Part shown: piece after piece, positions 2,869 to 57,613 of the stretch
How positions within the stretch are numbered: the stretch's first letter is position 1
Layout of the letters: every line of letters starts with the position of its first letter
Assembly (NCBI GenBank): GCA_965221835.1
Contig: OZ244916.1
Span: 329,947-393,946 of the forward strand
Direction of reading: 5' to 3'
Source of the DNA: Gammaproteobacteria bacterium
Lineage (GTDB): Bacteria > Pseudomonadota > Gammaproteobacteria > Tethybacterales > Persebacteraceae
Length of the DNA stretch: 64,000 bases
Position numbers and translations under genes: made by a program
Notes under the pieces: model-generated
The model's input: the letters and a program-made list of their open reading frames with translations, nothing else
The model's database searches: none
What the model was told of the DNA's origin: nothing

Positions 2869-2937
2869 AATACTCTCCTGCGTGTGTGTCGTAAAACGGT
2901 ATTGTATCAGAAAACGCCGAAATGTCAACCCGGCGCA

Positions 2938-17400: not shown

Positions 17401-17513
17401 CGGCGGGTGCAATTCATCGTCGACAAAACGCACAATATGCAGACCGCTGACAAGCGGGCGGATGTTGATTTTTTGGAAAATCGGCGAAAAAAATCTTCCG
17501 CCCGAAAAAAAAA

Positions 17514-40500: not shown

Positions 40501-43500
40501 CGGCACAGGCAGCGTTTCAATTTCGGGTGCGAATTCATTTGCGGCGGGCGAAAAATATACAGCGATAACAAACATTGCGGATGCAAACGGAATCAGCGTT
40601 TTCGTTTATTCATGGCATGCAAGTACGGACGGCGGAAATAACTATACGCAAATAACAGATGCGAATTCGGAATCGTACACGCTTGCATTGTCAGATTTTG
40701 CCGGTGCAACTTCGGCGAATCCGGTGCATCTTTTGCTTTCAGTTGTGCATACCGACATGGGCGGATTTTCGGAGTTTTATTTGGCAACGCTAATTCATTC
40801 CGACACGGCGGCGGGTGGAAGTTTGGGAATTGAAATTCAAAACGGCGTAATTGCGGAAGATGCGATTGTGGAATTAAATACGGCGGGAATTTCGGACATA
40901 AACGGCGGGGGAATCGTTTCGCATTCGTGGCATTTGGATAACGGTGCGGCGATTGTCGGCGAAACTTCGGCGACTTATATTTTGTCATCGGCGAATTTAA
41001 CTTTGTCGGAAATTCGCAACGGCGTTTTACATTCGGAAGTTTTATATCGGGATTCGTTCGGTTATGAAACAAGATTTTCCATCACGCTATTCGGCGAAGG
41101 CGATGATGAAGAATACGATCCGGACAATCCGAATGAGTTGGATTCTATGGGAACGGGAACGGTTGCGATTTCGGGAACGATTTCGTTTGCGGCGAATGAA
41201 AGATATACGGCGGACATTTCGCAAATCGCTCCGAATGACGCAAACGGCGAAGGAGATTTCGCATATTCATGGCATACGAGTACGGACGGCGGAACGAATT
41301 ACAATTTAATATCGGGTGCGAATTCGGAATCGTACACGCTTGCATTGTCGGATTTTTCCGGTGCAACTTCGGCGAATCCGGTGCATCTTTTGCTTTCGGT
41401 TGTGCATACCGATTTCGGCGGATTTGATCAAAGTTATCTGGCGACTTTGATTCATTCCGACACGGCGGCGGGCGGAAGTTTGGGAATCGGAATTCAAAGC
41501 GGCGTAATTGCAGAAGGTGCGATTGTGGAATTAAACACGGCGGGAATTTCGGACATAAACGGCGGCGGAATCATTTCGCATTCGTGGCATTTGGATAACG
41601 GTGCGGCGATTGTCGGTGCAACGGCGGCGACTTATATTTTGTCATCGGCGAATTTAACTTTGTCGGAAATTCGCAACGGCGTTTTACATTCGGAAGTTTT
41701 ATATCGGGACGATTTCGGTTATGAAACGAGATTTTCCATCACGCTATTCGGCGAAGGCGATGATGAAGAATACGATCCGGACAATCCGAATGAGTTGGAT
41801 TCTTTGGGAACGGGAACGGTTGCGATTTCGGGAACGATTTCGTTTGCGGCGAATGAAAAATATACGGCGGACATTTCGGACATCGCTCCGAATGATGCAA
41901 ACGGCAAAGGGACTTTTACATATTCATGGCATACGAGTACGGACGGCGGAAATAACTATACGCAAATCACGGGGGCGACATTGGAGTTGTATACGCTTGC
42001 ATTGTCGGATTTTGCGGGTGCGAATGCGAATGCGGAAGTGCATTTGCGAGTTTCGGTTGTGCATACCGATTTCGGCGGATTTGATCAAAGTTATCTGGCG
42101 ACTTTAATTCATTCCGACACAGCGGCGGGTGGAAGTTTGGGAATTGGCATTCGGGACGGAATCATCGCCGAAGATGCGGTTGTGGAATTAGACACGGCGG
42201 GAATTTCGGACATAAACGGCGGGGGAATCGTTTCGCATTCGTGGCATTTGGATAACGGTGCGGCGATTGTCGGTGCGACTGCGGCGACTTATACATTGCA
42301 AGCGGCGAATTTAACTTTGTCGGAAATTCGCAACGGCGTTTTACATTCGGAAGTTTTGTATCGGGATTCGTTCGGCTATGAAACAAGATTTTCCATCACG
42401 CTATTCGGCGAAGGCGATGATGAAGAATACGATCCGAACAATCCGAATGAGTTGGATTCTTTGGGCACGGGAACGGTTGCGATTTCGGGGACGATTTCGT
42501 TTGCGGCGAATGAAAGATATACGGCGGACATTTCGGACATCGCTCCGAATGACGCAAACGGCAAAGGAGATTTCGCATATTCATGGCATACGAGTACGGA
42601 CGGCGGAACGAATTACGATTTAATTTCGGGGGCGACATTGGAGTTGTATACGCTTGCGTTGTCGGATTTCGCCGGTGCGAATGCGAATGCGGAAGTGCAT
42701 TTGCGAGTTTCGGTTGTGCATACCGATTTCGGCGGATTTGATCAAAGTTATCTGGCAACTTTGATTCATTCCGACACGGCGGCGGGCGGAAGTTTGGGAA
42801 TTGAAATTCAAAGCGGCGTAATTGCCGAAGATGCGATTGTGGAATTAGACACGGCGGCGATTTCGGACATAAACGGCGGCGGAATCGTTTCGCATTCATG
42901 GCATTTGGATAACGGTGCGGCGATTGTCGGCGCAACGGCGGCGACTTATATTTTGTCATCGGCGAATTTAACTTTGTCGGAAATTCGCAATGGCGTTTTA
43001 CATTCGGAAGTTTTATATCGGGATTCGTTCGGTTATGAAACGAGATTTTCCATCACACTATTCGGCGAAGGCGATGATTCCGTCTCGCCGAATCCCGATG
43101 ATCCGAATCGTCCCGGCACGACGACAAATCCGGTTGACCCCGGCGACAATCCGGGCGGCGAAGATCCGGACAATCCGGGAAACATTTTCGGCACAGGCAG
43201 CGTTTCAATTTCGGGTGCGAATTCATTTGCGGCGGGTGAGAAATATACAGCGATAACGAACATTGCGGATGCAAACAGAATCGGTACGGTTTCATATTCA
43301 TGGCAAGCGAGTACGGACGGCGGAACGAATTACAATTTAATAACGGATGCGAATTCGGAATCGTACACGCTTGCGTTGTCAGATTTTTCCGGTGCAACTT
43401 CGGCAAATCCGGTGCATCTTTTGCTTTCAGTTGTGCATACCGACATGGGCGGATTTTCGGAGTTTTATCTGGCAACTTTGATTCATTCCGACACAGCGGC

Positions 43501-46500
43501 GGGCGGAAGTTTGGGAATTGAAATTCAAAGCGGCGTAATTGCGGAAGGTGCGGTTGTGGAATTAGACACGGCGGGAATTTCGGACATAAACGGCGGGGGA
43601 ATCGTTTCGCATTCGTGGCATTTGGATAACGGTGCGGCGATTGTCGGCGAAACTTCGGCGACTTATATTTTGTCATCGGCGAATTTAACTTTATCGGAAA
43701 TTCGCAACGGCGTTTTACATTCGGAAGTTTTATATCGGGATTCGTTCGGTTATGAAACAAGATTTTCCATCACGCTATTCGGCGAAGGCGATGATGAAGA
43801 ATACGATCCGGACAATCCGAATGAGTTGGATTCTTTGGGCACGGGAACGGTTGCGATTTCGGGAACGATTTCGTTTGCGGCGAATGAAAAATATACGGCG
43901 GACATTTCGGACATCGCTCCGAATGATGCAAACGGCAAAGGGACTTTTACATATTCATGGCACACGAGTACGGACGGCGGAACGAATTACAATTTAATAT
44001 CGGATGCGAATTCGGAATCGTACACGCTTGCATTGTCGGATTTTGCGGGTGCGAATGCGAATGCGGAAGTGCATTTGCGAGTTTCGGTTGTGCATACCGA
44101 TTTCGGCGGATTTGATCAAAGTTATCTGGCAACTTTGATTCATTCCGACACAGCGGCGGGCGGAAGTTTGGGAATTGAAATTCAAAGCGGCGTAATTGCC
44201 GAAGATGCGATTGTGGAATTAGACACGGCGGGAATTTCGGACATAAACGGCGGGGGAATCGTTTCGCATTCGTGGCATTTGGATAACGGTGCGGCGATTG
44301 CCGGCGAAACTTCGGCGACTTATACTTTGCAAGCGGCGAATTTAACTTTGTCGGAAATTCGCAATGGCGTTTTACATTCGGAAGTTTTGTATCGGGATGA
44401 TTTCGGTTATGAAACAAGATTTTCCATCACACTATTCGGCGAAGGCGATGACGAAGAATACGATCCGGACAATCCGAATGAGTTGGATTCTATGGGAACG
44501 GGAACGGTTGCGATTTCGGGGACGATTTCGTTTGCGGCGAATGAAAAATATACGGCGGACATTTCGGACATCGCTCCGAATGATGCAAACGGCAAAGGGA
44601 CTTTTACATATTCATGGCATGCGAGTACGGACGGCGGAACGAATTACGATTTAATTTCGGGGGCGACATTGGAGTTGTATACGCTTGCGTTGTCGGATTT
44701 TGCCGGTGCGAATGCGAATGCGGAAGTGCATTTGCGAGTTTCGGTTGTGCATACCGATTTCGGCGGATTTGATCAAAGTTATCTGGCGACTTTGATTCAT
44801 TCGGATACGGCGGCGGGCGGAAGTTTGGGAATCGGAATTCGGGACGGAATCATCGCCGAAGATGCGGTTGTGGAATTAGACACGGCGGGAATTTCGGACA
44901 TAAACGGCGGGGGAATCGTTTCGCATTCATGGCATTTGGATAACGGTGCGGCGATTGTCGGCGAAACTTCGGCGACTTATATTTTGTCATCGGCGAATTT
45001 AACTTTGTCGGAAATTCGCAACGGCGTTTTACATTCGGAAGTTTTATATCGGGATTCGTTCGGTTATGAAACGAGATTTTCCATCACACTATTCGGCGAA
45101 GGCGATGATTCCGTCTCGCCGAATCCCGATGATCCGAATCGTCCCGGCACGACGACAAATCCGGTTGACCCCGGCGACAATCCGGGCGGCGAAGATCCGG
45201 ATAATCCGGGAAACATTTTCGGCACAGGCAGCGTTTCAATTTCGGGTGCGAATTCATTTGCGGCGGGTGAGAAATATACAGCGATAACAAACATTGCGGA
45301 TGCAAACAGAATCGGTACGGTTTCATATTCATGGCAAGCGAGTACGGACGGCGGAACGAATTACAATTTAATAACGGATGCGAATTCGGAATCGTACACG
45401 CTTTCGCTGGCGGATTTTGCCGGTGCAACTTCGGCAAATCCGGTGCATCTTTTGCTTTCAGTTGTGCATACCGACATGGGCGGATTTTCGGAGTTTTATC
45501 TGGCAACTTTGATTCATTCCGACACGGCGGCGGGCGGAAGTTTGGGAATTGAAATTCAAAATGGCGTAATTGCGGAAGATGCGATTGTGGAATTAGACAC
45601 TGCCGGAGTTTCGGACATAAACGGCGGGGGAATCGTTTCGCATTCGTGGCATTTGGATAACGGTGCGGCGATTGTCGGGGCGGATGCGGCGACTTATACA
45701 TTGCAAGCGGCGAATTTAACTTTGTCGGAAATTCGCAACGGCGTTTTACATTCGGAAGTTTTATATCGGGATTCGTTCGGTTATGAAACAAGATTTTCCA
45801 TCACGCTATTCGGCGAAGGCGATGATGAAGAATACGATCCGAACAATCCGAATGAGTTGGATTCTATCGGCACGGGAACGGTGGCGATTTCGGGAACGAT
45901 TTCGTTTGCGGCGAATGAAAAATACACGGCGGACATTTCGGACATCGCTCCGAATGATGCAAACGGCGAAGGAGATTTCGCATATTCATGGCATGCGAGT
46001 ACGGACGGCGGAACGAATTACGATTTAATTTCGGGGGCGACATTGGAGTTGTATACGCTTGCGTTGTCGGATTTTGCCGGTGCGAATGCGAATGCGGAAG
46101 TGCATTTGCGAGTTTCGGTTGTGCATACCGATTTCGGCGGATTTGATCAAAGTTATCTGGCAACTTTGATTCATTCCGACACGGCGGCGGGCGGAAGTTT
46201 GGGAATTGTCGCCGCCGGTTTGATGGCGGGCGATTTGGTGACGGCGGATGCGGCGGGATTGACGGACGCAAACGGGGCGTTGACAATTTCATATCGCTGG
46301 CAAACGGGCGAACGAAATACGCCGGAAAGTTTTGCGGATCTTGTCGGCGAAACGGAAGCGGTTTATACAATTTATGCGGATGATTATGATTCCGATTCGC
46401 GAGATTCGTTGCGGCTGATTGCAAGAACGGCGGATCCGTTCGGCGGCGAGACGCAAATTACGAGTGCGATATTGCCGATCAATCGCGAAACCGAAGGGCG

Positions 46501-48538
46501 AATTTCGTTGGAGTTGGTCGGCGGAGAAATTGTTGCGGGGGCGACGATACGATTGCGGACGGATGCGGTATCGGATGAAAACGGCGGCGGTTTTGAAAAA
46601 TATTATTGGTTTATAAACGATCTTTTGTTGATGGAAGAAAATGACGATTTTCTTGTCGTGCGGTCGGATGATTTGCGCGATATTGCGGCGGGCGGATTGC
46701 GGGCGGAGGCGAAGTATGTTGACGGAATCGGATTTACCGTTCGGTTGTCGGCGAGATTGATTGCTGCCGGTATTGTCGCACCGTCGCCGGAAGAAATCGC
46801 GAATTGGTCGGTCGTTATAGAAACCGAAGGCGTTGCGTTCGGCGAGGATTTGGCACGGGCGAATTTGATTGGCGCGGAACAATCGGATTATTACGAAGTT
46901 TTCTATCGCTGGCGAACAGGCGTTGGCATCGCTTTTGCCGATGAAAGGAATGTCGGCGGCGTTGGCAACTATCATCAGTTGGAAGCGGCGAATTTTAATC
47001 CGCAAGATCATTTGCGGGCGATTGCCGAAGTGGAGTTATTGTCCGGCGCTTTTGTCACGCTTACTTCGGCGCCGGTGCAAATTGATTATCCGTCTATCGG
47101 TGCGGTGCGAATTGTCGCCGGCGAGTTGCTGGCGCCGGGGGTTGTGGTCAGTGCGGATATTTCTGATGTGCGGGATGCGAATGGCGGCATAAACGTTGTT
47201 TCTGAAAGATGGTTGTATGCAGATACGCCTGTTGCGATGGCGCGCAGTTATACCTTAACCGAAGAAGCGGTGCATGCCGGAAAAGTTTTTTATGAGGCGA
47301 TTTTTGCGGACGCTGCCGGTTTTCGTACATCGTTGCGGGCGGAAGCAAATGTGGGAGGCGAAGTATCATCCGAAAAAGCCGAAGCAATAATTGGTGCGGT
47401 CAATGCAGCGGCGATTGACGGATTGTGGAACGCGTTGGAGGGGCATTTGGATAGCGAAGCCGGATGGCGTGCGAATGGTGCGCCGATTGAAGATCCATCG
47501 CAAATCGCCGCGGCATTGTCGCGCCGTGATGAAAATTCTTTGCATCCCGATTCGCCGTTTGCGTTGGATTCGTTTGCGTTGAAAGAATCGGGCGGCGAGG
47601 CGGGTGAAGAATGGTCGTGGTGGGCGCACGGGTCGCGGAGTAGATTGAAAGGAAAGCCGATTATCGACGGCGAGGAAGTAAAATATCACGGCGATTATGC
47701 ATCTTTTCATGCGGGAATGGATCGGCAAATCAGCGACACGATGCGCGCCGGACTCGCTTTCGGTGCGGACGATGCGGATTTGGATGTGGAATGGCGCAAA
47801 GGCGTAGACGGACGGTTGCGGCAGAATATTCGTTCGCTGATTCCATATACGGAATGGCGTCCGGATGATTTGACGAATGTGCGCATATTGGCGGGCTACG
47901 GCGAAGGCGATATTTATTTGGCGGAACACGATAACGCATCCAGGGCATCCGCCCGCCGGACATTGTTCGGCATTCGCGCCGCCCGCCGCAAAGATTTGGC
48001 GGACAATTTTGATATTACTTTTTCGGGCGGATTTGACAAAACGCGTCTGCAAACGGGCGCGATTGATTTGCCCGGATTGCAAGATGATTTGGACGCCCGC
48101 ACGAAAGAAACACATGCGCGAGTGAGAGGTGGACATATTTCATTGTTGCCGGCAAAAGGATCATTGCACAAAGAAATAAGTTTGCGTTGGCGTTCGCAAT
48201 CAGTAGCGGGCGACAGAGATAGCGTTTTTGATTTCGGCATCGGATTTAATGCGACATTGCCGGAATATTTTCTTTCGTTCGGGGCGGACGGCGAACGGCA
48301 ACTAACCGACTCGGCACACGAACGAAATCGTTTCGGCGTTTATATCGCCTACGGTGCCGGACGATTTGCGCATATTTTGGAAACCCGTTATGACAACGAA
48401 ATAGCGTTACCACAAAATCGCTGGCAAATTAACACCGTTTCAGAATGGGGCGTCAGCGAACTTCTCACCGGCGTTTATGTGGAACATAACGGCAACGCAG
48501 ATCTTAGAATCGGCTGGGAATCTAATCTTCTGTTTTAA
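37577..48538 (+). CDS. Giant (3653 aa) secreted repeat protein: signal peptide, unique N-terminal domain, diverged ~110-aa modules, about 9 near-identical ~219/238-aa tandem repeats, and a ~330-aa C-terminal autotransporter-like beta-domain ending in Phe
   Basis: One uninterrupted 10.96 kb ORF. Signal peptide MRFFRRILAILFALCGAEA-ALS. Repeat blocks (...GTGTVAISGTISFAANEKYTADISDIAPNDANGKG.F.YSWH.STDGG.NY...VHLRVSVVHTDFGGFDQSYLATLIHSDTAAGGSLGIEIQSGVIAEDAIVELDTAGISDINGGGIVSHSWHLDNGAAIVG..SATY.L..ANLTLSEIRNGVLHSEVLYRDSFGYETRFSITLFGEGDDEEYDPDNPNELDS) are identical except at scattered residues. The C-terminus (...WSWWAHGSRSRLKG... to ...IGWESNLLF) resembles the start and end of type Va autotransporter barrels. 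Confidence 0.8.
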   Translation: MRFFRRILAILFALCGAEAALSQEITISLDVAAKQITVLSPRPTRQFRYFWRCAETNPITGDEIELEFLQRDTNLPNSQFLTFAEIEEHLNDNIKCDHISLAYVRNANEVIRSNTLRIVGVRREGNPPHVTVNIDHIGDGYTEGDVYSFNVVYTDLFGVVQTVRNDEEERFNEVFGNVQWFKTGIRSKDNLIAFPSSSSTDNLFVNPPSPFPERRFIFLPVRDIECTGESCETELMPTLGDAIAYQPIESPPPPQYPHTYTLSHSHFSDSYYTRDNGEIIYLDHFAVRITDKWEHTEQPFSGLTQYGVSWGFIPRNEPTEVSQLELYRSIDPFQFSGTPAEEPVSFGEFAFGSDKEKLYNLFSISGDLNNGIKQSTRFIWQHRINGGEWITTEDERIVRGTYFTSPDHFVGAKIGDEIQIRGILDVEDGWGLRNYLFSPTLSHTDMPPTGDMQFIETGLHAEATITTSLDEIEDPDGEIDVLSYRWQAGNGTVFTDVLFQEYDEANRRLFADSIRNVPYILDASVFNQEGNSGMRVIAELTDSFFGQATITSGFFLVNPPTEGTVSINGNPLFSDGEIYTLTNVDELTDGNGIGRFSYSWYVSIDGGNSYDRRGAFGTTFTLKASHIAEANADTPVLLRADVVHTDADRYTQTLVAFFEQNFPTQGEITIDGNPMFAAGEIYTAITAELSDSNEIGGFTYQWLVSFDDGNNYNEIAGETGETYTADTADFAGANPNTPIFLGVSAVHTDLDGYAQTITAFLEQDLPTQGDIVLNAIANPLVLGEVKFSVNVDALTDGNDIGDFAYQWFASIARGADYNPISAATDRSYILDRSDFAGAAANEPVRISVSVVHTDLAGYEQSFGDFFVQNPRTEGEITIDGNPMFADGEIYTAITAALSDRNGIGDFTYQWVISFDGGNNYNTNGILGIDSTYTLRAEDIANADENIPALLGVAAVHTDLDGNTQTLTASFLQDIAGTGSVSISGANSFAAGEKYTAITNIADANGISVFVYSWHASTDGGNNYTQITDANSESYTLALSDFAGATSANPVHLLLSVVHTDMGGFSEFYLATLIHSDTAAGGSLGIEIQNGVIAEDAIVELNTAGISDINGGGIVSHSWHLDNGAAIVGETSATYILSSANLTLSEIRNGVLHSEVLYRDSFGYETRFSITLFGEGDDEEYDPDNPNELDSMGTGTVAISGTISFAANERYTADISQIAPNDANGEGDFAYSWHTSTDGGTNYNLISGANSESYTLALSDFSGATSANPVHLLLSVVHTDFGGFDQSYLATLIHSDTAAGGSLGIGIQSGVIAEGAIVELNTAGISDINGGGIISHSWHLDNGAAIVGATAATYILSSANLTLSEIRNGVLHSEVLYRDDFGYETRFSITLFGEGDDEEYDPDNPNELDSLGTGTVAISGTISFAANEKYTADISDIAPNDANGKGTFTYSWHTSTDGGNNYTQITGATLELYTLALSDFAGANANAEVHLRVSVVHTDFGGFDQSYLATLIHSDTAAGGSLGIGIRDGIIAEDAVVELDTAGISDINGGGIVSHSWHLDNGAAIVGATAATYTLQAANLTLSEIRNGVLHSEVLYRDSFGYETRFSITLFGEGDDEEYDPNNPNELDSLGTGTVAISGTISFAANERYTADISDIAPNDANGKGDFAYSWHTSTDGGTNYDLISGATLELYTLALSDFAGANANAEVHLRVSVVHTDFGGFDQSYLATLIHSDTAAGGSLGIEIQSGVIAEDAIVELDTAAISDINGGGIVSHSWHLDNGAAIVGATAATYILSSANLTLSEIRNGVLHSEVLYRDSFGYETRFSITLFGEGDDSVSPNPDDPNRPGTTTNPVDPGDNPGGEDPDNPGNIFGTGSVSISGANSFAAGEKYTAITNIADANRIGTVSYSWQASTDGGTNYNLITDANSESYTLALSDFSGATSANPVHLLLSVVHTDMGGFSEFYLATLIHSDTAAGGSLGIEIQSGVIAEGAVVELDTAGISDINGGGIVSHSWHLDNGAAIVGETSATYILSSANLTLSEIRNGVLHSEVLYRDSFGYETRFSITLFGEGDDEEYDPDNPNELDSLGTGTVAISGTISFAANEKYTADISDIAPNDANGKGTFTYSWHTSTDGGTNYNLISDANSESYTLALSDFAGANANAEVHLRVSVVHTDFGGFDQSYLATLIHSDTAAGGSLGIEIQSGVIAEDAIVELDTAGISDINGGGIVSHSWHLDNGAAIAGETSATYTLQAANLTLSEIRNGVLHSEVLYRDDFGYETRFSITLFGEGDDEEYDPDNPNELDSMGTGTVAISGTISFAANEKYTADISDIAPNDANGKGTFTYSWHASTDGGTNYDLISGATLELYTLALSDFAGANANAEVHLRVSVVHTDFGGFDQSYLATLIHSDTAAGGSLGIGIRDGIIAEDAVVELDTAGISDINGGGIVSHSWHLDNGAAIVGETSATYILSSANLTLSEIRNGVLHSEVLYRDSFGYETRFSITLFGEGDDSVSPNPDDPNRPGTTTNPVDPGDNPGGEDPDNPGNIFGTGSVSISGANSFAAGEKYTAITNIADANRIGTVSYSWQASTDGGTNYNLITDANSESYTLSLADFAGATSANPVHLLLSVVHTDMGGFSEFYLATLIHSDTAAGGSLGIEIQNGVIAEDAIVELDTAGVSDINGGGIVSHSWHLDNGAAIVGADAATYTLQAANLTLSEIRNGVLHSEVLYRDSFGYETRFSITLFGEGDDEEYDPNNPNELDSIGTGTVAISGTISFAANEKYTADISDIAPNDANGEGDFAYSWHASTDGGTNYDLISGATLELYTLALSDFAGANANAEVHLRVSVVHTDFGGFDQSYLATLIHSDTAAGGSLGIVAAGLMAGDLVTADAAGLTDANGALTISYRWQTGERNTPESFADLVGETEAVYTIYADDYDSDSRDSLRLIARTADPFGGETQITSAILPINRETEGRISLELVGGEIVAGATIRLRTDAVSDENGGGFEKYYWFINDLLLMEENDDFLVVRSDDLRDIAAGGLRAEAKYVDGIGFTVRLSARLIAAGIVAPSPEEIANWSVVIETEGVAFGEDLARANLIGAEQSDYYEVFYRWRTGVGIAFADERNVGGVGNYHQLEAANFNPQDHLRAIAEVELLSGAFVTLTSAPVQIDYPSIGAVRIVAGELLAPGVVVSADISDVRDANGGINVVSERWLYADTPVAMARSYTLTEEAVHAGKVFYEAIFADAAGFRTSLRAEANVGGEVSSEKAEAIIGAVNAAAIDGLWNALEGHLDSEAGWRANGAPIEDPSQIAAALSRRDENSLHPDSPFALDSFALKESGGEAGEEWSWWAHGSRSRLKGKPIIDGEEVKYHGDYASFHAGMDRQISDTMRAGLAFGADDADLDVEWRKGVDGRLRQNIRSLIPYTEWRPDDLTNVRILAGYGEGDIYLAEHDNASRASARRTLFGIRAARRKDLADNFDITFSGGFDKTRLQTGAIDLPGLQDDLDARTKETHARVRGGHISLLPAKGSLHKEISLRWRSQSVAGDRDSVFDFGIGFNATLPEYFLSFGADGERQLTDSAHERNRFGVYIAYGAGRFAHILETRYDNEIALPQNRWQINTVSEWGVSELLTGVYVEHNGNADLRIGWESNLLF
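40500..46210 (+). repeat. Intragenic tandem array: about 9 copies of a 657-bp unit (two copies 714-717 bp with an added Pro/Asp-rich linker), >95% identical, arranged as a ~2031-bp higher-order repeat
   Basis: The antisense and alternate-frame ORFs in the supplied track recur with identical sequence at fixed spacing (41719/42376/43750/44407; 41064/42378/43752/45783; 43033..43263 = 45064..45294; 43053..43760 = 45084..45791; 43300..43521 = 45331..45552). Older diverged ~330-bp repeats precede the array at 39230-40500. Confidence 0.85.
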
Positions 48539-48639
48539 TATATTCCGAAAATTTTTTTCGGCGGTTTTGCTTTTTTAAGATATTCCGAAAATTTTTTTTT
48601 CGGCGATTTTGTTTTTTTAAGATATTCCGAAATCCCCGC

Positions 48640-49507: not shown

Positions 49508-50749
49508 ATGCCGTTCGCGCTGATTAAGTATGCGTTTCGCCGCCGTCCGTTGCCGCGTTTTTTGCCGCCTTCGCCGCCGCGCAAAAAAAATTACGATGTC
49601 GTCATTATCGGCGGCGGCGGACACGGGCTGGCATGCGCATATTATCTTGCCGCCCGCCATGGCATTCGCAATGTTGCGGTGTTTGAACGCGGCTGGCTCG
49701 GCGGCGGCAATACCGCGCGCAATACCGCCATTATTCGGGCGAATTATCTGACCGCCGAGGCGATTCGTTTTTACGGCGAATCGGCGCGAATGTTCGCCGG
49801 TTTGTCGCGCGAGTTGGACTATAATATTTTGTATTCTCCGCGCGGACATTTGACATTGGCGCACACCGATGCCGCTTGTCGTACCGCCCGTTGGCGCGCA
49901 AATATGAACCGGCATTCGGGCGAAGAATCGCATTTTATCGGCGCGGACGAAGTCGCCAAAATATGCCCCGAAATTAATCTTTCCGCATCGGCGCGTTATC
50001 CGGTTTTGGGGGCGTTGTATCATCCGCCGGGGGCTATCGCCCGTCACGATGCGGTCGCATGGGGATATGCGGCGCGTGCTGCCGAGTTGGGAGTCGCGAT
50101 TTTTCCGCACACCGAAGTGACCGGCATTATGCGCGAAAACGGCGAAGTGCGCGGCGTTTGTCTGGCGGACGGCGAAGAGATTTTTGCGGGGGCGGTGATG
50201 CAAGCGACAGCGGGTGCAAGTTCGGCGGTTGCGGCGCTTGCCGGATTTAAATTGCCGCTGATAAGTATTCCGTTGCAGGCGATGGTGTCGCAACCGCTGG
50301 CGCCGTTTTTGGACCCGATTATCGTTTCCGGTTCTTTGCATGTCTATATTTCGCAATCATCGCGCGGCGAATTGGTGATGGGCGGCAGTGTGGATCCGCG
50401 TCCGTTGCATTCGCCGCGTTCCACGGCGCGATTTAAAGAATCGCTCGCTGGCGACATCGTGCAGTTGTTTCCGTTTCTCGGCGAGGTGCGCGTTTTGCGG
50501 CAGTGGGCGGGAATTGCAGACATGACTCCCGATTTTTCGCCGCTGATGGGCGAGACGCCGCTGAAAAACTATTACATAGATGCCGGCTGGGGGACATGGG
50601 GATTTAAGGCGACGCCGGTGTGCGGAAAAACGATGGCGGAAACCATTGCCGCCGGACGCGCACCGCCGATTATCGCGCCGTATTCGTTGTCGCGATTTGA
50701 CGATTTGAATCTGGTCGGCGAAAAAGGCGCGGCGGCGGTCGGGCATTGA
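49508..50749 (+). CDS. soxB: Heterotetrameric sarcosine oxidase beta-subunit homolog (FAD-dependent oxidoreductase)
   Basis: YDVVIIGGGGHGLACAYYLA dinucleotide fold, ...GGGNTARNTAIIR... typical of SoxB. First gene of a B-D-A-G order. Confidence 0.8.
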   Translation: MPFALIKYAFRRRPLPRFLPPSPPRKKNYDVVIIGGGGHGLACAYYLAARHGIRNVAVFERGWLGGGNTARNTAIIRANYLTAEAIRFYGESARMFAGLSRELDYNILYSPRGHLTLAHTDAACRTARWRANMNRHSGEESHFIGADEVAKICPEINLSASARYPVLGALYHPPGAIARHDAVAWGYAARAAELGVAIFPHTEVTGIMRENGEVRGVCLADGEEIFAGAVMQATAGASSAVAALAGFKLPLISIPLQAMVSQPLAPFLDPIIVSGSLHVYISQSSRGELVMGGSVDPRPLHSPRSTARFKESLAGDIVQLFPFLGEVRVLRQWAGIADMTPDFSPLMGETPLKNYYIDAGWGTWGFKATPVCGKTMAETIAAGRAPPIIAPYSLSRFDDLNLVGEKGAAAVGH

Positions 50750-50750
50750 A

Positions 50751-51053
50751 ATGAAGTTGATTCCCTGTCCGCTGAACGGTCTGCGTCCCGAAGACGAGTT
50801 TGTTTGCGGCGGTCGCATTCGCGCCGTGCCGCCGCCGGATGCGCCCGATTCGGCGTGGCGCGATTATCTTTTTTTTGACGACAATCTGCCCGGCGAAATG
50901 TGGGAATGGTGGTGTCATTTGCCGAGCAGTTTTTGGTTCGCCGCCCGCCGCGACACCGTGCGCGATGAAATTTTGGAAACGCGCGAAGTTGCCGAAATCT
51001 CCGAAATCTCCGAAATTGCCGAAATCTCCAAAATCGCGGAGGCGAAAAAATGA
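50751..51053 (+). CDS. soxD: Sarcosine oxidase delta-subunit homolog with a C-terminal (EIS/EIA)n repeat
   Basis: MKLIPCPLNGLRPEDEFVCGG...WWCHLPSS.W is SoxD-like. The tail EISEISEIAEISKIAE is encoded by 9-bp tandem repeats (gaaatctcc x~5). Confidence 0.75.
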   Translation: MKLIPCPLNGLRPEDEFVCGGRIRAVPPPDAPDSAWRDYLFFDDNLPGEMWEWWCHLPSSFWFAARRDTVRDEILETREVAEISEISEIAEISKIAEAKK

Positions 51054-53749
51054 CGCCGGGAAAATTTATCGCGTCGTCAAAGCGGCTGTCGTTCAATTTT
51101 GACGGGCGGCGGATTGAATGTTTTGCCGGCGATTCGGTTTCGTCGGCGTTGTGGCGTGCGGGCGTCAAAACAATTTCGCGTTCTTTTAAGTACCATCGGC
51201 GGCGCGGCATATTGTCGCTGTCGGGGGCGGATGCGAACGCGCTGGCGGATATTGATGGCGCGCCGAATGCATGTATGGATCGCGCGGCGGCGGCGGAGGG
51301 AATGACGGTGCGCGCCCGTCATTGCATCGGCGGGGCGGCGCGTGACCGGCTGGCGATGATGCGGTGGCTGTCGCCGTTTTTGCCGCCGGGATTTTATTAC
51401 AAGGCGTTTTACAAACCGCACGGCGTTTGGCCGCTGTGGGAAAAACTCATTCGCCGTCTCGCCGGAATGGGCGAAGTCAATCCGGCGGCGACATTTTCCC
51501 CGCCGGAGCGGATATACGATTTTTGCGATGTCGCGGTTATCGGCGGCGGTGCGGCGGGCATTGCCGCGGCGCGTGCGGCGGCGAAAGGCGGCGCATCCGT
51601 TTGTTTGATAGACCGCAATCTTGCATTGGGCGGCGCGTTGAATTGGCGCGGCGGCGGTGCGGAAGATTTCGCGTTGCCCGACAAAGTGCGCGTGATGACA
51701 TCGTGCGAGGCGACCGGCGTATTTCCCGACCGGACAATTCTGGCGCATTCGCCGGGGCGTTCTTTTCGTTTGCGCGCGGACAATATTTTGTATGCGACCG
51801 GCGCGCGCGATACGCCGGTTGTGTTCGGCAACAACGATTTACCCGGCGTAATGCTGGTCTCGGCGGCGTTGCGTCTCGCGTTTTTGTACGATGTCGCTTG
51901 CGGACGGCGTGCCGCGATAGTTGCCGGTACTGCGGCGGATGCGAATGCCGCGCGCGCATTGCAAAACTACGGCGTGCAAATCGCGGCGGTTTTCAATATC
52001 GGCGATGGCGATGCGGAATGGGCGGCGGCATTGGCGGCGGACGGATTCGCCGTCTACCGCGATATTTCGGCTTTTTCTGCAACCGGACGCGAATGCGTTG
52101 CGGGCGCGAACGCCGTTGCCGAAGGACGGAATATAAAAATCAGTTGCGATTGCATTCTGATGAACGGCGGCGCGATTCCATGCGCGGAGTTACCGGCGGC
52201 GGCGGGAGTTGCGTTTCATTACGATTCGCTTTTGCGCCGACCGGTTTCCGCAGACAAATCGCTGGCGGGCGGGGTTTGCAATCGCGCGCAGTTTGCCGCC
52301 GAAGACGGTGCGGCGGCGGGCGGCGGCGGTGCGCGACCGGCGGCGGATTCCGAAGCGGCACCCGCCGACATATTTTTATCCGGCAACGGAATGGCGTTCG
52401 TGGATATGGAAGAGGATTTGCAATTAAAAGATTTGGACGATGCGATGGACGAAGGATTTGACGACATTCAACTTCTCAAAAGATACACGACCGCCGGAAT
52501 GGGACCGGCGCAAGGCAAACTCGGCAATGTCGCGGTATTGCGCTATCTCGCCGACAAATCGGGGCGGGATGCGGCGACACTCGGACAAGTCACCGCCCGC
52601 CCGCCGGCGGCAGCGGAAACATTGGCGCAACTCGCCGATCATCCGCATCCGATAAAACGCACGCCGTTGCATTACGAACATTTGCATTTATCGGCGGCGT
52701 TTATGCCCGCCGGGGCGTGGTTGCGTCCGGCACGCTACGGCAATGTGGAAGAAGAAGCGCGGGCGGTGCGCGAAAATGCGGGCGTTATTGACATTTCCAC
52801 ACTCGGCAAAATTCAAATTTCCGGTCCCGATGCGGCGGCGTTTTTGGAACGAATGTATGCGGGCAAATTCGCGCAACAAAAACCCGGCACGGTGCGTTAT
52901 GCGTTGATGCTGGACGAAAGCGGCGTTATCGCCGATGACGGAGTCGTCGCCCGTTTGGACGAGGCGCGTTTTTGGGCAACAACGACAACGGGCAATGCAG
53001 ACGCGATTTATCGGCAGATGTTGCTGTGGCGCGCGCGCTGGAATTTGCGGGCGGATATTTTGCAAATGACTTCGGCGTTTGCGGCGATGAATGTTGCAGG
53101 CCCGAACGCGCCGCGATTGCTCGCCGCAGTTGCCGGTCGCGACATTGATTTGGGCTATATGCGGGCGGCGGAAATATCGCTCGGCGGCGGCACGGTCATT
53201 TTGATGCGGGTCGGATTTGTCGGCGAAAAAGGATATGAAATTCATCTTCCGGCGGGGCGCGCGGTCGCGCTGTGGAAAGCGTTTTTGCGGGACGCGATTC
53301 CTTTCGGCGTGGAAGCGCAACGGCTGTTGCGTTTGGAAAAAGGGCATATTATTGTCGGACAAGACACGGACGGTTTAACGACGCCGTTAGAATCGGGAAT
53401 GGAATCGCTACTCGGGCGCGACAAAGCGTTTTATCTCGGACAACGCGCTTTGACAATTCACCGGCGGCGCGGCATTCGGCGGGTATTGCGCGGTTTTACG
53501 ATGAACGCGCGCCGCCGAAAAATTACCGAATCCGATTTGGTGCTGGACAAAACCGGTGCGGCGGCGGGGCATGTCACTTCGGTCGCCTATTCGCCGGCAT
53601 TGCGGCGCGTTGTCGGTTTGGCGTTTGCGCCCGCTGACACGCCGCCGCGCGGGGGGATTTTGCGTTTGCGTACCGCCGCCGGAGAAGTCATGGAAGTACG
53701 CACTTCGCCGCCGCCGTTTTATGACCCGGAAGGAGAACGACAAAAATGA
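51050..53749 (+). CDS. soxA: Sarcosine oxidase alpha-subunit homolog (NAD/FAD-binding plus GcvT-like folate-binding domain)
   Basis: The N-terminal SoxA segment (…RIECFAGDSVSSALWRAGV…HRRRGIL) is followed by DVAVIGGGAAGIAAARAAAKGGASVCLIDRN and then a C-terminal aminomethyltransferase-like region (GKIQISGPDAAAFLERMYAGKF). The ATGA overlaps the soxD stop. Confidence 0.85.
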   Translation: MTPGKFIASSKRLSFNFDGRRIECFAGDSVSSALWRAGVKTISRSFKYHRRRGILSLSGADANALADIDGAPNACMDRAAAAEGMTVRARHCIGGAARDRLAMMRWLSPFLPPGFYYKAFYKPHGVWPLWEKLIRRLAGMGEVNPAATFSPPERIYDFCDVAVIGGGAAGIAAARAAAKGGASVCLIDRNLALGGALNWRGGGAEDFALPDKVRVMTSCEATGVFPDRTILAHSPGRSFRLRADNILYATGARDTPVVFGNNDLPGVMLVSAALRLAFLYDVACGRRAAIVAGTAADANAARALQNYGVQIAAVFNIGDGDAEWAAALAADGFAVYRDISAFSATGRECVAGANAVAEGRNIKISCDCILMNGGAIPCAELPAAAGVAFHYDSLLRRPVSADKSLAGGVCNRAQFAAEDGAAAGGGGARPAADSEAAPADIFLSGNGMAFVDMEEDLQLKDLDDAMDEGFDDIQLLKRYTTAGMGPAQGKLGNVAVLRYLADKSGRDAATLGQVTARPPAAAETLAQLADHPHPIKRTPLHYEHLHLSAAFMPAGAWLRPARYGNVEEEARAVRENAGVIDISTLGKIQISGPDAAAFLERMYAGKFAQQKPGTVRYALMLDESGVIADDGVVARLDEARFWATTTTGNADAIYRQMLLWRARWNLRADILQMTSAFAAMNVAGPNAPRLLAAVAGRDIDLGYMRAAEISLGGGTVILMRVGFVGEKGYEIHLPAGRAVALWKAFLRDAIPFGVEAQRLLRLEKGHIIVGQDTDGLTTPLESGMESLLGRDKAFYLGQRALTIHRRRGIRRVLRGFTMNARRRKITESDLVLDKTGAAAGHVTSVAYSPALRRVVGLAFAPADTPPRGGILRLRTAAGEVMEVRTSPPPFYDPEGERQK

Positions 53750-54387
53750 GCGGCAACGAAAATTTGTCGTACTGGCGCGGACCGCTGGAATCGGCGTTCG
53801 CGAACGGCGCGGACGGCGCGGAATGGGCGGATTGCGGCGATTCCCGCATTGTCGAATCGTGCGCATCCGATTCCGGTTCTTTTTCAACAGGCGTTTGCGA
53901 TTTGTCGCCGCTGCCGCGAACGGGTGCGAAAGGCGAATGCACCGCCGCCGCACCGCCGCCGAACACTTCCGCGGCATTTGCGGACGGTTCGCTTTGTTGC
54001 CGTCTCGGTGCGGACGAAATTTTAATTTTGGCATCACCCGATGGTGCGCATGCGAACATTTCCGAATCGGTGATGCCGTCGCCGCGTCTGATTATTCCGC
54101 GCCGCGATTCGCATTGTCAAATCGGTTTGTACGGTGCGGCGGCGAAATCGGCGTTGGCGCGATTGTGCGCGGTGCCGCCGCCGTGCAAAAACGAATTGCT
54201 GCAAACGCGCGTTGCCGATGTGTCGGCGATTGTCGTTTGCGAACCGCGCGCGGCGGGTGCGTTTTATATTCTGACCGATTGCGGTTATGCGATGCATTTG
54301 TGGGAGGCGGTTGTCGCCGCCGTCAAATCGGCGGGCGGCGGAGTCGCCGGATGGAAACAATGGCGGACATTGTTCGCCGAAAAATGA
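53746..54387 (+). CDS. soxG: Sarcosine oxidase gamma-subunit homolog
   Basis: Size (~213 aa), position and overlap with the soxA stop. Weak SoxG-like composition. Confidence 0.6.
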   Translation: MSGNENLSYWRGPLESAFANGADGAEWADCGDSRIVESCASDSGSFSTGVCDLSPLPRTGAKGECTAAAPPPNTSAAFADGSLCCRLGADEILILASPDGAHANISESVMPSPRLIIPRRDSHCQIGLYGAAAKSALARLCAVPPPCKNELLQTRVADVSAIVVCEPRAAGAFYILTDCGYAMHLWEAVVAAVKSAGGGVAGWKQWRTLFAEK

Positions 54388-55271
54388 AAACGACTCTCGC
54401 CGTTTTGCAAATCGCATGCGAGGCGGAACCGTCCGCGAATATCGCTAAAATCGGCGGGATGACGCGGGCGGCGGCGCGCAACGGCGCACAAATTATTCTG
54501 CCGCCCGAATTGTTTGAACGCCCGTATTTTTGCAAGACGCAACGCGCCGAGTTTTACGATTTCGCTGCCGCACCCGAAGAAAATATGGCGGTGCGGGCGA
54601 TGCAAAAACTATCTGCGGAATTAAATTTAATCATTCCCGTCAGTTTTTACGAACGCGCGGGCAACGCATTATTCAATTCGCTCGCGTTGTTGGCGGACGG
54701 CGAAGTAGCGGGCGTATATCGCAAATCGCACATTCCGGACGGACCGGGTTATCAAGAAAAGTTTTATTTTTCGCCGGGCGATACCGGATTTTTTGCCGCA
54801 CCGACTTCGCGCGGAAAAATCGGCGCAGCGATTTGTTGGGATCAATGGTTTCCAGAAGCCGCGCGGATTATGGCGTTGGGCGGCGCGGATGTTTTGCTGT
54901 ATCCGACAGCGATAGGAGACGAACCGCATCTTACCGCGAAAGGTGCAACCGCAAATTCGTTCGCGCATTGGCAAAATGTCATGCGCGGACACGCCGCCGC
55001 GAATGTCGTATCGGTTGCCGCCGCAAATCGCATCGGCGAAGAGGAACAAAAAGACGCTTTTGGCAATATCGTGCGGACGAATTTTTACGGCGGTTCGTTT
55101 GTCGCCGATGCGTGCGGCGAAGTTGTCGCGCAAGCATCGCACGATGGCGAAGAAACGATTGCCGCCGAAATGGATTTTGCGCGGGATGCGGAAATGCGCG
55201 CGACATGGGGATTGTTCCGCGACCGCCGCCCCGATTTATACCGCGCGTTAACGACATTGTCGGGAAAGTAG
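54384..55271 (+). CDS. aguB: N-carbamoylputrescine amidase homolog (nitrilase-superfamily C-N hydrolase)
   Basis: Near-colinear with Pseudomonas AguB: ...AQIILPPELFERPYFC..., LIIPVSFYERAGNALFNS, YRKSHIPDGPGYQEKFYFSPGDTGF, KIGAAICWDQWFPE, LLYPTAIGDEPH. Its ATG overlaps the soxG TGA (ATGA). Confidence 0.85.
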   Translation: MKTTLAVLQIACEAEPSANIAKIGGMTRAAARNGAQIILPPELFERPYFCKTQRAEFYDFAAAPEENMAVRAMQKLSAELNLIIPVSFYERAGNALFNSLALLADGEVAGVYRKSHIPDGPGYQEKFYFSPGDTGFFAAPTSRGKIGAAICWDQWFPEAARIMALGGADVLLYPTAIGDEPHLTAKGATANSFAHWQNVMRGHAAANVVSVAAANRIGEEEQKDAFGNIVRTNFYGGSFVADACGEVVAQASHDGEETIAAEMDFARDAEMRATWGLFRDRRPDLYRALTTLSGK

Positions 55272-55284
55272 ACGCGGCAAGTTT

Positions 55285-55975
55285 TTAATCGGAATTCGGA
55301 AAATTCCGATTTTCATCTGAATTTAGAAAATTACGATTTTCACCGTAATTCGGAAAACTCCGATTTTCACCAGAATGCCATTTTATGAACATCGCCGCCC
55401 GCCGCCGTTTCCATCCTCGCAAAACGCGGAAATTAAATAGGCGCGTTTTTCATCATAATTTGGAAAATTCCGATTTTTATCTGAATTTAGAAAATTACAA
55501 TTTTTATCGCAATTCGGAAAACTCCGATTTTCATCTGAATTTAGAAAATTACGATTTTCACCGTAATTCGTAAAATTCCGATTTTCACCAGAACGCTATT
55601 TTATAAACACCGCCCGCCGCCGCCGTTTCCATCCTCGCAAACGCGGAAATTAAATAGGCGCGTTTTTCATCGGAATTCGGAAAATTCCGTTTTTCATCCG
55701 AATTCGGAAAATTAAGATTTTTATCAGAACGCTATTTTATGAACTCCGCCCGCCGCCCGTTTCCATCTTTGCGAACGCGGAAATGAAATAGGCGCGTTTT
55801 TTATCATAATTCAGAAAATTCCGTTTTTCATCATAATTCGGAAAATTCAAATTTTCACCGGAATTCGGAAAACTCCGATTTTTATCAGAACGCTATTTAT
55901 GAACGCCGCCCGTTTCCATCTTCGCAAAACGCGGAAATGGAAAAGATGATTTTTTTTATAAAACAGTGATTCGGT
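55285..55975. repeat. Complex intergenic tandem repeat array: about 14 copies of a 26-28-bp hairpin-capable unit (AATTCGGAAAAyTCCGATTTTCAyC) interleaved with 4 copies of a ~80-bp unit
   Basis: gaattcggaaaattccgattttcatc, tgaatttagaaaattacgattttcacc and gtaattcggaaaactccgattttcacc alternate with ...gccattttatgaacatcgccgcccgccgccgtttccatcctcgcaaaacgcggaaattaaataggcgcgtttttcat. Each cggaa-aa-ttccg core can form a 5-bp stem. Confidence 0.7.
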
Positions 55976-56020
55976 TTTGCGCGGGTGTTCTTTTTTGCGG
56001 TTGCGTATTATAATTTGCGA

Positions 56021-57382
56021 ATGACTAAAACGACAAACGAAACTGCTGAATATCAATGTTTGGATGCGGCGCATTATATGCATCCTTTTACGGACGGGCG
56101 CGCGTTGGGGGCGGGGGCGCGCATTATCGTGCGCGGCGAAGGCGCATATTTGTGGGACAGCGATGGCGGCAAACTGCTGGACGGAATGTCCGGTTTGTGG
56201 TGCGTCAATATGGGTTATGGGCGCGAGGAAATTGTCGCCGCGGTTGCCGCACAAATGCGCGAGTTGCCTTATTACAACAGTTTTTTTCAGTGCGCGACTC
56301 CGCCCGCGATTGAGTTGGCGAAAGAGTTGGCGGACATTGCACCGCCGGGATTCAATCATGTCTTTTTTGTCGGTTCCGGTTCCGAGGCGAACGATACTAT
56401 CGTGCGAATGATTCGCCGCTATTGGGCGTTGCGCGGTCGTCCGCAAAAAACGGTTATCGTTTCGCGTCATAACGCTTATCACGGCAGCACGATGGCGGGC
56501 GCGTCTTTGGGCGGAATGGCGGCGATGCACGCGCAAGGCGGATTGCCGATTCCCGGCATTGTGCATACCGCGCAACCTTATTGGTTTGGCGAAGGACGCG
56601 ATTTGTCGCCGGACGAATTCGGACGCCGTGCGGCGAATGCGCTGGCAGAAACAATTGACGAAATCGGCGCGGAAAATGTCGCGGCGTTTATCGGCGAACC
56701 GGTGCAAGGGGCGGGCGGCGTGATTGTGCCGCCCGATTCATATTGGGGAGCGGTGCAGGAAATTTGCGACGAACGCGATGTGCCGATTGTCGCCGACGAA
56801 GTGATTTGCGGTTTCGGGCGTTTGGGGACTTGGTTTGGGTCGGAAGTTTTCGGGATTCGTCCGAAACTGATGCCGATAGCGAAAGGAATGACTTCGGGCT
56901 ATTTGCCGATGGGCGGCGTGTTGGTGCATGACGATATTGCCGACACCATTATTGACGAATGCGGCGAATTCGCACACGGATTTACATACAGCGGTCATCC
57001 GGCTTGTGCGGCGGCGGCGCTTGCAAATTTGCGTCTAATGCACGAAGAAAATATTATACAAAAAACGCGCGAAGTTGCTGCACCGTATTTGCAACAAGAA
57101 TGGGCGCGACTTGCCGATCATCCGATTGTCGGCGAAGCGCGCGGAATCGGAATGGTTGCGGCGCTGGAAATTGTCGCCGATAAAGCAACCGGCGCGCGAT
57201 TTGCGGGACAATCGGCGGGCGCAAAATGCCGCGATTTTTGCGTCGCCGCCGGACTCGTCATGCGCGCAGTCGGCGATACGATGATCGTCGCACCGCCGTT
57301 AGTTATCACCCGCGAACAAACAGACGAACTCATCCAAAAAGCAACTCTCGCATTAGACAAAACCGCCGCCGCATTGCGATAG
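56021..57382 (+). CDS. Class III (omega-amine) pyridoxal-phosphate aminotransferase, SpuC / beta-alanine–pyruvate transaminase-like
   Basis: ...LWCVNMGYGREEI..., ...VFFVGSGSEANDT..., FIGEPVQGAGGVIVPP, DEVICGFGRLG, ...MPIAKGMTSGYLPMGGV... (PLP-lysine region). A tattataat -10 ends 6 nt before the ATG. Confidence 0.8.
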   Translation: MTKTTNETAEYQCLDAAHYMHPFTDGRALGAGARIIVRGEGAYLWDSDGGKLLDGMSGLWCVNMGYGREEIVAAVAAQMRELPYYNSFFQCATPPAIELAKELADIAPPGFNHVFFVGSGSEANDTIVRMIRRYWALRGRPQKTVIVSRHNAYHGSTMAGASLGGMAAMHAQGGLPIPGIVHTAQPYWFGEGRDLSPDEFGRRAANALAETIDEIGAENVAAFIGEPVQGAGGVIVPPDSYWGAVQEICDERDVPIVADEVICGFGRLGTWFGSEVFGIRPKLMPIAKGMTSGYLPMGGVLVHDDIADTIIDECGEFAHGFTYSGHPACAAAALANLRLMHEENIIQKTREVAAPYLQQEWARLADHPIVGEARGIGMVAALEIVADKATGARFAGQSAGAKCRDFCVAAGLVMRAVGDTMIVAPPLVITREQTDELIQKATLALDKTAAALR

Positions 57383-57613
57383 ATTCGCGGCGCGGAATTC
57401 TAACTATGCCATTTCCGTGAAGGCGGGAATATTGTCAATCCGCAGAATCCGCAGAAGCGAGGGGCGACAATAAACTGCGGCACGAGAGAAAACTTCCCGC
57501 ATCAAATGCTCGGATGTGGTTTTTTTGTTGCAGGTTTGTGTGTGCTGATGGGGCGGGGGCGGGATTTGGGGGGATTTTTTTGTGCAGCGCAAAAATATGC
57601 TATACTTTTCGCC

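Follow-up and report, generated by a model that had tools for sequence, protein, structure and literature searches.

A lineage-specific junction between soxBDAG-like genes and an aguB–aminotransferase pair in a Persebacteraceae bacterium, probably a juxtaposition of two independent catabolic modules

The window analyzed here is a 64,000-nucleotide stretch (64 kb) of the chromosome of a gammaproteobacterium of the family Persebacteraceae (contig OZ244916.1, positions 329,947–393,946). Between positions 49508 and 57382 of the window lie, one after another on the plus strand, soxB-, soxD-, soxA- and soxG-like genes for the subunits of a heterotetrameric flavoenzyme, a homolog of aguB, which encodes N-carbamoylputrescine amidase, and, behind a spacer filled largely by a repeat array, the gene of a SpuC-type aminotransferase (Table 1). 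An earlier note, made from the DNA letters, had read these genes as a single undescribed pathway of amine catabolism. Comparison with related loci favors another explanation, to which a probability of about 0.7 is assigned: two independent modules of catabolism, each older than their adjacency, would have come to lie side by side in one lineage, without forming a new pathway.

Organization of the locus

Table 1. Features of the soxBDAG–aguB–aminotransferase locus, in window coordinates (aa, amino acids; nt, nucleotides).
Feature	Position	Strand	Size	Basis
soxB-like gene, beta subunit of a heterotetrameric Sox/Mgd-family flavoenzyme	49508-50749	+	413 aa	PF01266, TIGR01373
soxD-like gene, delta subunit	50751-51053	+	100 aa	PF04267, TIGR01374
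soxA-like gene, alpha subunit with GcvT-type folate-binding domain	51050-53749	+	899 aa	Fer2_4, SO_alpha_A3, GCV_T, GCV_T_C
soxG-like gene, gamma subunit, highly divergent	53746-54387	+	213 aa	conserved position and sequence across the subfamily loci
aguB, N-carbamoylputrescine amidase homolog	54384-55271	+	295 aa	PF00795 (CN_hydrolase), TIGR03381
Spacer between aguB and aminotransferase gene	55272-56020		750 bp	
27-nt tandem-repeat array	55283-55887	n/a	12 copies	repeat scan
-10-like element TATTATAAT	56006-56014	+		conserved between window/L001 and L009
SpuC-type putrescine/polyamine:pyruvate aminotransferase gene	56021-57382	+	453 aa	PF00202 (Aminotran_3), PRK07480

The gene content and coordinates that the earlier note gave for the sox-like, aguB-like and aminotransferase genes are borne out by the open reading frames (ORFs) and by Pfam and NCBIfam matches. 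The overlaps of 1–4 nt that it described among the sox genes are present, as ATGA of 4 nt, at the soxD/soxA and soxA/soxG junctions; soxB and soxD do not overlap and are separated by a single nucleotide (TGA A ATG). The overlap of the soxG stop with the start of the nitrilase-superfamily gene is likewise an ATGA of 4 nt. The aguB start at 54384 (MKTT...) agrees with the N-termini of its relatives; gene callers place the start at an upstream ATG at 54351, which gives a protein of 306 aa. An exact-sequence look-up of the AguB protein as read from 54384 returned no match.

There is no intergenic space from soxB to aguB and no plus-strand promoter-like site before aguB in the promoter scan, which makes it likely that soxB, soxD, soxA, soxG and aguB are co-transcribed. 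The numbers of promoters and terminators in the scan did not exceed those in shuffled sequences, and an Rfam scan of 48–58 kb revealed no riboswitch and no known RNA. The sox genes have a GC content at third codon positions of 0.62–0.63; past the soxG/aguB junction it drops to 0.57 for aguB and the aminotransferase gene, a weak sign that two modules meet there.

The sox–aguB junction in related genomes

Homologs of the alpha subunit (SoxA) split into a subfamily of ~900-aa proteins with at least 52% identity and, after a gap, a remainder with 44% or less. Nine loci of this subfamily were read besides the window, and the order soxB-D-A-G is kept in all eight subfamily loci compared for it. Only in the window, in L001 (SoxA 99% identical) and in L009 (SoxA 80%; GCA_973529575.1) is soxBDAG followed by a CN_hydrolase gene and then by an aminotransferase gene. 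In six other lineages, L002 (66%), L003/L004 (63%), L005/L006 (68%), L007 (60%), L008 (60%) and L095 (73% over the C-terminal part present), soxBDAG stands alone among unrelated housekeeping genes. Since the junction is limited to the window, L001 and L009, it appears to have arisen once, in a narrow clade. The earlier note had tied its single-pathway proposal beforehand to conservation of the sox–aguB adjacency; outside this one clade the adjacency is missing, and the proposal is not upheld.

The aguB–aminotransferase pair

The two genes downstream of soxG have a history of their own. In four related lineages (L010/L011, L012, L013 and L094) aguB and the aminotransferase gene overlap by 4 nt, and no sox genes are present within 8–10 kb of the pair. 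AguB and the aminotransferase are, respectively, 72% and 80% identical to those of the window in L010/L011, 66% and 70% in L013, 62% and 66% in L094, and 57% and 62% in L012; over all loci with an aminotransferase ortholog 3' of aguB (L009, L010, L012, L013 and L094) the aminotransferase is 62–86% identical. The sox cluster L007 and the aguB pair L012 lie on one contig of 1,773,455 bp, at ~1.45 and ~1.66 Mb, ~195 kb apart, and the sox cluster L002 and the pair L010 are on separate scaffolds of a single TARA assembly. These placements indicate that both modules are inherited in the lineage and are normally unlinked.

In L012 (8001-12679) and L094 (10001-14671) the pair is part of a four-gene string composed of aguB, the SpuC-type aminotransferase gene, an alanine dehydrogenase gene (TIGR00518, 465 bits against a cut-off of 392) and a glutamine synthetase (GS)-like gene. 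The alanine dehydrogenase is in line with an amine transaminase that depends on pyruvate, and the string looks like a compact unit for putrescine deamination. The two genomes that hold it measure 1.8–2.05 Mb, and in L094 a RidA-family gene comes next. A gene with a Creatinase_N/M24 match beside the L013 pair had raised the idea that the pair is linked to creatine or sarcosine metabolism. This was rejected because the neighbors match, by NCBIfam, an ectoine-utilisation-like EutA, an M24 hydrolase and a diaminopropionate ammonia-lyase, matches that are all weak or unrelated to creatinase.

Ordinary aguB loci were taken from a genome scan with the AguB alignment, which listed 80 loci from diverse species at 48–55% identity; close relatives of the window are not among these matches. 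As the earlier note had held, the usual neighbor of aguB is aguA, the gene of agmatine deiminase: among the matches listed it lies within 500 bp of aguB at 45 of the 80 loci, and a sox-like gene lies within 10 kb at none. A SpuC-like aminotransferase gene is found within 500 bp at one listed locus (L056, a metagenome-assembled genome (MAG) of Hyphomicrobiales), and a cluster of aguB, aguA and an aminotransferase gene occurs among the same matches in an Acidocella MAG (L043). The coupling of aguB to spuC is a peculiarity of the window's lineage.

AguB and the aminotransferase as probable enzymes of putrescine metabolism

The assignment of the nitrilase-family protein to the AguB type stands. 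It is colinear from end to end, at 54–57% identity, with the annotated AguB of Tistrella, Azospirillum and Ruminococcus, and its homologs form a continuum from 99% identity down to these annotated N-carbamoylputrescine amidases. The Glu-Lys-Cys triad (E42, K114 and C151) is invariant, as are 77 columns in all, across 24 sequences. The best match of known structure is the N-carbamoylputrescine amidohydrolase (CPA) of Medicago with 315 bits. The class-III aminotransferase is, likewise, of the SpuC type that had been proposed: it scores 738 bits on PRK07480, above the cut-off of 510, and its best matches of known structure are 6GWI, a 'putrescine aminotransferase' (663 bits), 9J4Z, a 'polyamine:pyruvate transaminase' (640 bits), and 6HX9 (638 bits).

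In Pseudomonas aeruginosa AguA and AguB together with SpuC (PA0299) form the agmatine/putrescine route (Nakada & Itoh 2003, as cited in PMC9397018). The same consecutive steps, from N-carbamoylputrescine to putrescine and on to 4-aminobutanal, are predicted by homology in the window, where aguB and the aminotransferase gene fit this known catabolic route. The lineage of the window differs from P. aeruginosa in having a translationally coupled aguB–aminotransferase pair without adjoining aguA; in the window itself a repeat array additionally parts the two genes, and the first of them is fused to sox.

An AguB-like enzyme and an aminotransferase might also act on another carbamoyl-amine, for example in pyrimidine degradation, from N-carbamoyl-beta-alanine through beta-alanine to malonate semialdehyde, or on N-carbamoylsarcosine that would feed the oxidase. 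The specificities of nitrilase-superfamily carbamoylases overlap, as do those of class-III transaminases, and AguB falls slightly under the TIGR03381 cut-off (382 against 410 bits). No AguA gene is present in the 64-kb window, and among the best 120 matches to one AguA type, the seed of which was the AguA of a relative, none lies on a contig the size of this organism's genome. However, the end-to-end identity of AguB to annotated amidases and its invariant columns argue for N-carbamoylputrescine, beta-ureidopropionases score at most 107 bits where the Medicago enzyme scores 315, and the aminotransferase reaches 288 bits with the beta-alanine:pyruvate transaminase 4B98 compared to 640–663 bits with putrescine and polyamine transaminases. 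Moreover, a relative on a contig of 2,048,534 bp has both AguA and the aguB–aminotransferase pair. A different carbamoyl-amine is, on balance, improbable as the substrate.

The spacer between aguB and the aminotransferase gene

The repeat array reported between aguB and the aminotransferase gene is present and lies within the spacer. It consists of 12 copies (at most 3 mismatches) of a 27-nt unit with the consensus TTTTCATCGGAATTCGGAAAATTCCGA, all on the plus strand, where none are expected from shuffled sequences, and the copies are arranged in higher-order units of ~134 nt (134–153 nt when L001 is included). In each unit a T-run comes after a small palindrome, GGAATTcggaaAATTCC. The unit does not occur elsewhere in the 64-kb window, and the array folds no better than shuffled sequences (z = -1.7). 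In the 99% identical strain L001 the array is longer (14234-14989), and in L009 the repeat is absent and the spacer holds an ankyrin-repeat gene and other unrelated sequence. The different fillings in window/L001 and in L009 suggest that an ancestral overlap of aguB with the aminotransferase gene was opened and then filled separately in the two sublineages.

The -10-like element TATTATAAT ends 6 nt before the ATG of the aminotransferase gene and is conserved in window/L001 and L009 (~6836-6844) despite the unrelated spacers upstream of it. The promoter scan revealed no matching -35 element. Conservation of the element next to the ATG suggests that the aminotransferase gene has a promoter of its own and is read from a leaderless mRNA.

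The sox-like complex and its substrate

The four sox-like genes follow the order beta, delta, alpha, gamma of the heterotetrameric sarcosine oxidase (TSOX) SoxBDAG of Corynebacterium sp. U-96 (1VRQ/3AD7) and Stenotrophomonas maltophilia (2GAG). The beta subunit matches PF01266 (DAO, 225 bits) and TIGR01373 (448 bits, under the cut-off of 529), shares 47% identity with 1VRQ_B, the beta chain of a solved TSOX (391 bits), and its relatives align from residue 1. Its segment IARHDAVAW aligns with IAKHDHVAW of 1VRQ_B, and GWGTWGFKATP with GWGTGGFKGTP, so that the HD and GFK motifs are kept; in TSOX the histidine is the site of covalent FMN attachment and the lysine of the GFK motif is conserved. Together they presumably mark an active site whose ligand is an N-methyl amino acid with a carboxylate group and not a polyamine.

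The alpha subunit contains the SO_alpha_A3 and GcvT domains of TSOX (PF01571, 235 bits; PF08669, 44 bits), but it is ~65 aa shorter, scores 594 bits on TIGR01372, under the cut-off of 1164, and aligns with the solved TSOX alpha chain (259 bits) over residues 236–898 only. The delta subunit matches PF04267 (82 bits) and, under the cut-off of 116.5, TIGR01374 (58 bits). Of the four positions Cys6, Cys9, His59 and Cys63 of the solved delta chains, presumably Cys3His zinc ligands, only Cys6 and His59 are retained: CPNCG has become CPLNG, with Asn at position 9, and at position 63 there is a Ser or a gap. Cysteines that might stand in for the lost ones are not kept across the subfamily. At the 3' end of soxD a 9-bp tandem repeat (50976-51038, ~5 copies) adds a EISEISEIAEISKIAE tail up to the soxA start; the delta ortholog of L009 is 85 aa long and lacks this tail, and the tails of other relatives are different and unrelated. 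The gamma subunit has no Pfam and no NCBIfam match. It is 26–32% identical to the gamma genes of the sister clade described below, which are themselves weak PF04268 and GCV_T matches, and its profile gives a colinear match to 2GAG_C with E = 0.085. A structure model from the single sequence reached a pLDDT of 34 and is not usable.

A metagenome scan provided an outgroup, the loci L096, L100–L103 and L105, with beta subunits 57–65% and alpha subunits 39–42% identical to those of the window. The proteins of this clade are likewise under the curated TSOX cut-offs and likewise lack the delta cysteines, and both clades share GWGTWGFKATP in beta and the CP[LMV]NG motif in delta. Five of the sister-clade loci carry, after the sox-like genes, a TIGR03105 (GlnT/GmaS-type) synthetase gene (527–668 bits, cut-off 470), which in L103 is accompanied by GXGXG and Glu_synthase genes; judged by these domains, this is the layout of an N-methylglutamate pathway. 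In a neighbor-joining tree of beta subunits the window's subfamily is sister to this gmaS-carrying clade and not nested in it, with solved TSOX outside both. The sox-like genes of the lineage make up a clade of their own whose sister group is the N-methylglutamate-pathway clusters.

The window's complex might instead be an N-methylglutamate dehydrogenase of the type MgdABCD of methylamine utilization, known from Methyloversatilis universalis and putative in SAR11 (PMC3160333), which has the same four-subunit architecture; the relation to aguB would be incidental in that case too. Sarcosine oxidase and N-methylglutamate dehydrogenase are reported to be inseparable by sequence alone (PMC3160333), and the nearest outgroup, with which the window's clade shares its beta and delta motifs and the loss of the delta cysteines, sits in clusters of the gmaS/mgs type. 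The likeness to MgdABCD is, however, known by way of uncharacterized sister-clade sequences, and no gmaS-type or mgsABC-type gene is found in the 64-kb window or beside any of eight subfamily loci; a GS-like gene elsewhere in the window scores 220 bits on TIGR03105, far under the cut-off of 470. In L007 the gene next after the sox cluster encodes a GbcA-like Rieske oxygenase, which points to methylated substrates of the betaine type. Furthermore, oxidation of sarcosine derived from choline and creatine is reported for a related sponge symbiont of the Persebacteraceae, whose genome measures 2.05 Mb (PMC11525543). Sarcosine is thus the more likely substrate, and an N-methylglutamate dehydrogenase is unlikely, though the most serious of the alternatives.

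Two modules or one pathway

According to the explanation preferred here, the first module, soxB-D-A-G, would encode a flavoenzyme of the sarcosine oxidase/N-methylglutamate dehydrogenase family whose reaction is the oxidative demethylation of an N-methyl amino acid; the GcvT-like domain of its alpha subunit would hand the one-carbon (C1) unit on to tetrahydrofolate. Conversion of sarcosine to glycine is the likeliest reaction, with N-methylglutamate as the main alternative substrate. In the second module AguB would hydrolyze N-carbamoylputrescine to putrescine, CO2 and NH3, and the aminotransferase would transfer an amino group of putrescine to pyruvate, giving 4-aminobutanal and alanine; close homology and the alanine dehydrogenase gene that follows the pair in relatives are the reasons for this assignment. 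The aguB–aminotransferase pair would have come to lie immediately after soxG in the ancestor shared by the window's genus-level clade, and aguB would since be read from the sox transcript through the ATGA overlap. The old overlap of aguB with the aminotransferase gene would have been broken by inserted DNA, the 27-nt array in the window and the ankyrin gene in L009, and the aminotransferase gene now probably has its own promoter. The fusion was probably a single rearrangement, and its only effect is probably that aguB is expressed together with sox. What the two modules may have in common is organic-nitrogen scavenging, possibly from the host, and not a substrate; Persebacteraceae are described as importing putrescine, spermidine and glycine (PMC8546597).

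Several observations weigh against this explanation. The soxG/aguB ATGA junction, retained in L009, has survived ~20% protein divergence, which means that the fusion did not happen by accident very recently, and selection, at least for co-expression, may have kept it. The pair in L010 lies 110 bp after gcvT-H-P, and two placements beside glycine/C1 genes, there and in the window, may point to a metabolic connection. The alpha, beta and delta subunits as well as AguB are all under the curated NCBIfam cut-offs, AguB by a narrow miss, and the search for AguA in the window organism was negative within the bounds given above.

The junction kept in L009, the negative AguA search, the gapless string from soxB to aguB and an uncharacterized sox-like subfamily under the curated TSOX cut-offs are what a single pathway can draw on, in which the SoxBDAG-like oxidase, AguB and the aminotransferase would successively convert a single N-substituted amine or polyamine such as an N-methylated or N-carbamoylated diamine. 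It is nevertheless very improbable. The adjacency is confined to a clade with at least 80% identity, six sox lineages lack aguB and four aguB–aminotransferase pairs lack sox; both AguB and the aminotransferase closely resemble enzymes whose specificity is known, the active-site motifs of the beta subunit match those of solved TSOX, and the aminotransferase gene lies 750 bp off behind a -10-like element of its own.

Recruitment of the Sox/Mgd-like flavoenzyme together with AguB onto a common N-substituted amine, in a genome that possibly lacks agmatine deiminase, is likewise very improbable. The substrate would be, for example, an N-methylated or N-carbamoylated amine from the animal host. In a weaker form this idea holds that the divergent sox-like clade acts on a substrate other than sarcosine and N-methylglutamate, and cites the loss of the delta zinc-site cysteines and the unrecognizable gamma subunit.

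Surroundings of the cluster and origin of the window

Outside the cluster the window is ordinary chromosomal DNA, with carAB, greA, pepA, leuS, recG, rne, ribF, murJ, ilvD and moeA, and with phaC, thiolase and reductase genes downstream of the cluster. A GS-family gene that the earlier note had drawn into the module does lie on the minus strand at 2938-4275 (445 aa, Gln-synt_C domain only), but its membership was rejected: it is 45 kb away and below all curated cut-offs, including those for GlnA, type III GS and gamma-glutamylputrescine synthetase. It was also rejected as an ortholog of gmaS or of the GS-like gene that follows aguB, the aminotransferase gene and the alanine dehydrogenase gene in relatives, being 28–30% identical to either. 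A 501-aa ORF without a family match follows this gene at a distance of 10 nt on the minus strand (interval 1423-4275).

Directly 5' of the sox cluster there is a giant ORF (37577-48538, 3653 aa) without a confident Pfam domain, which may encode a large surface protein. It is also present in the 99% identical strain L001 (1-7861) and in the 66% relative L002 (1-8331; 5948 aa), and absent from the other subfamily loci. Immediately 3' of its stop, 2.4 copies of a 42-nt tandem repeat (48533-48632) contain a CCGAAAATTTTTTTCGG hairpin each. On the other side of the cluster, L001 has ~1.7 kb of extra DNA between the aminotransferase gene and phaC (16482-18055, compared to 57383-57505 in the window), which includes an MvaI/BcnI-type restriction endonuclease gene that the window lacks, a strain-level indel.

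The origin from Neisseria that the earlier note had entertained is wrong. The 10-mer uptake sequence GCCGTCTGAA, of which Neisseria carry about one per kb, occurs once in 64 kb, and the close homologs all belong to uncultured Gammaproteobacteria: they come from MAGs, one of them labeled WSBS_2016, from a TARA scaffold and from contigs of 1.77–2.12 Mb. L001 is a circular contig of 1,999,211 bp (ena:ERZ25072152:ctg52285_257x_c), and the best named relative of AguB, at 60% identity, is from Candidatus Persebacteraceae, order Tethybacterales. By these relatives the organism would belong in or near Tethybacterales, an order of sponge symbionts, and it is similar to Gammaproteobacteria with small genomes that may live with sponges. 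Genes of ankyrin, Sel1, TPR and pentapeptide-repeat proteins lie beside the aguB–aminotransferase genes in L009 (5978-6388) and L013 (11852-16100); repeat proteins of this eukaryote-like kind are a typical trait of symbionts living with animals.

Implications

The locus shows the re-packing of catabolic operons in a small genome and cautions against deducing a pathway from one tight gene junction. Since the sox-like genes form a distinct clade, sister to N-methylglutamate clusters, the label 'sarcosine oxidase' in metabolic models of sponge symbionts is to be taken as putative. If the flavoenzyme were indeed recruited together with AguB, a new route of amine degradation would be added to the nitrogen metabolism of symbionts. 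The repeat array of the spacer is hypervariable. The conserved, coupled aguB–spuC pair, often with an alanine dehydrogenase gene next to it, is a marker of agmatine/putrescine catabolism in this lineage of small-genome marine Gammaproteobacteria.

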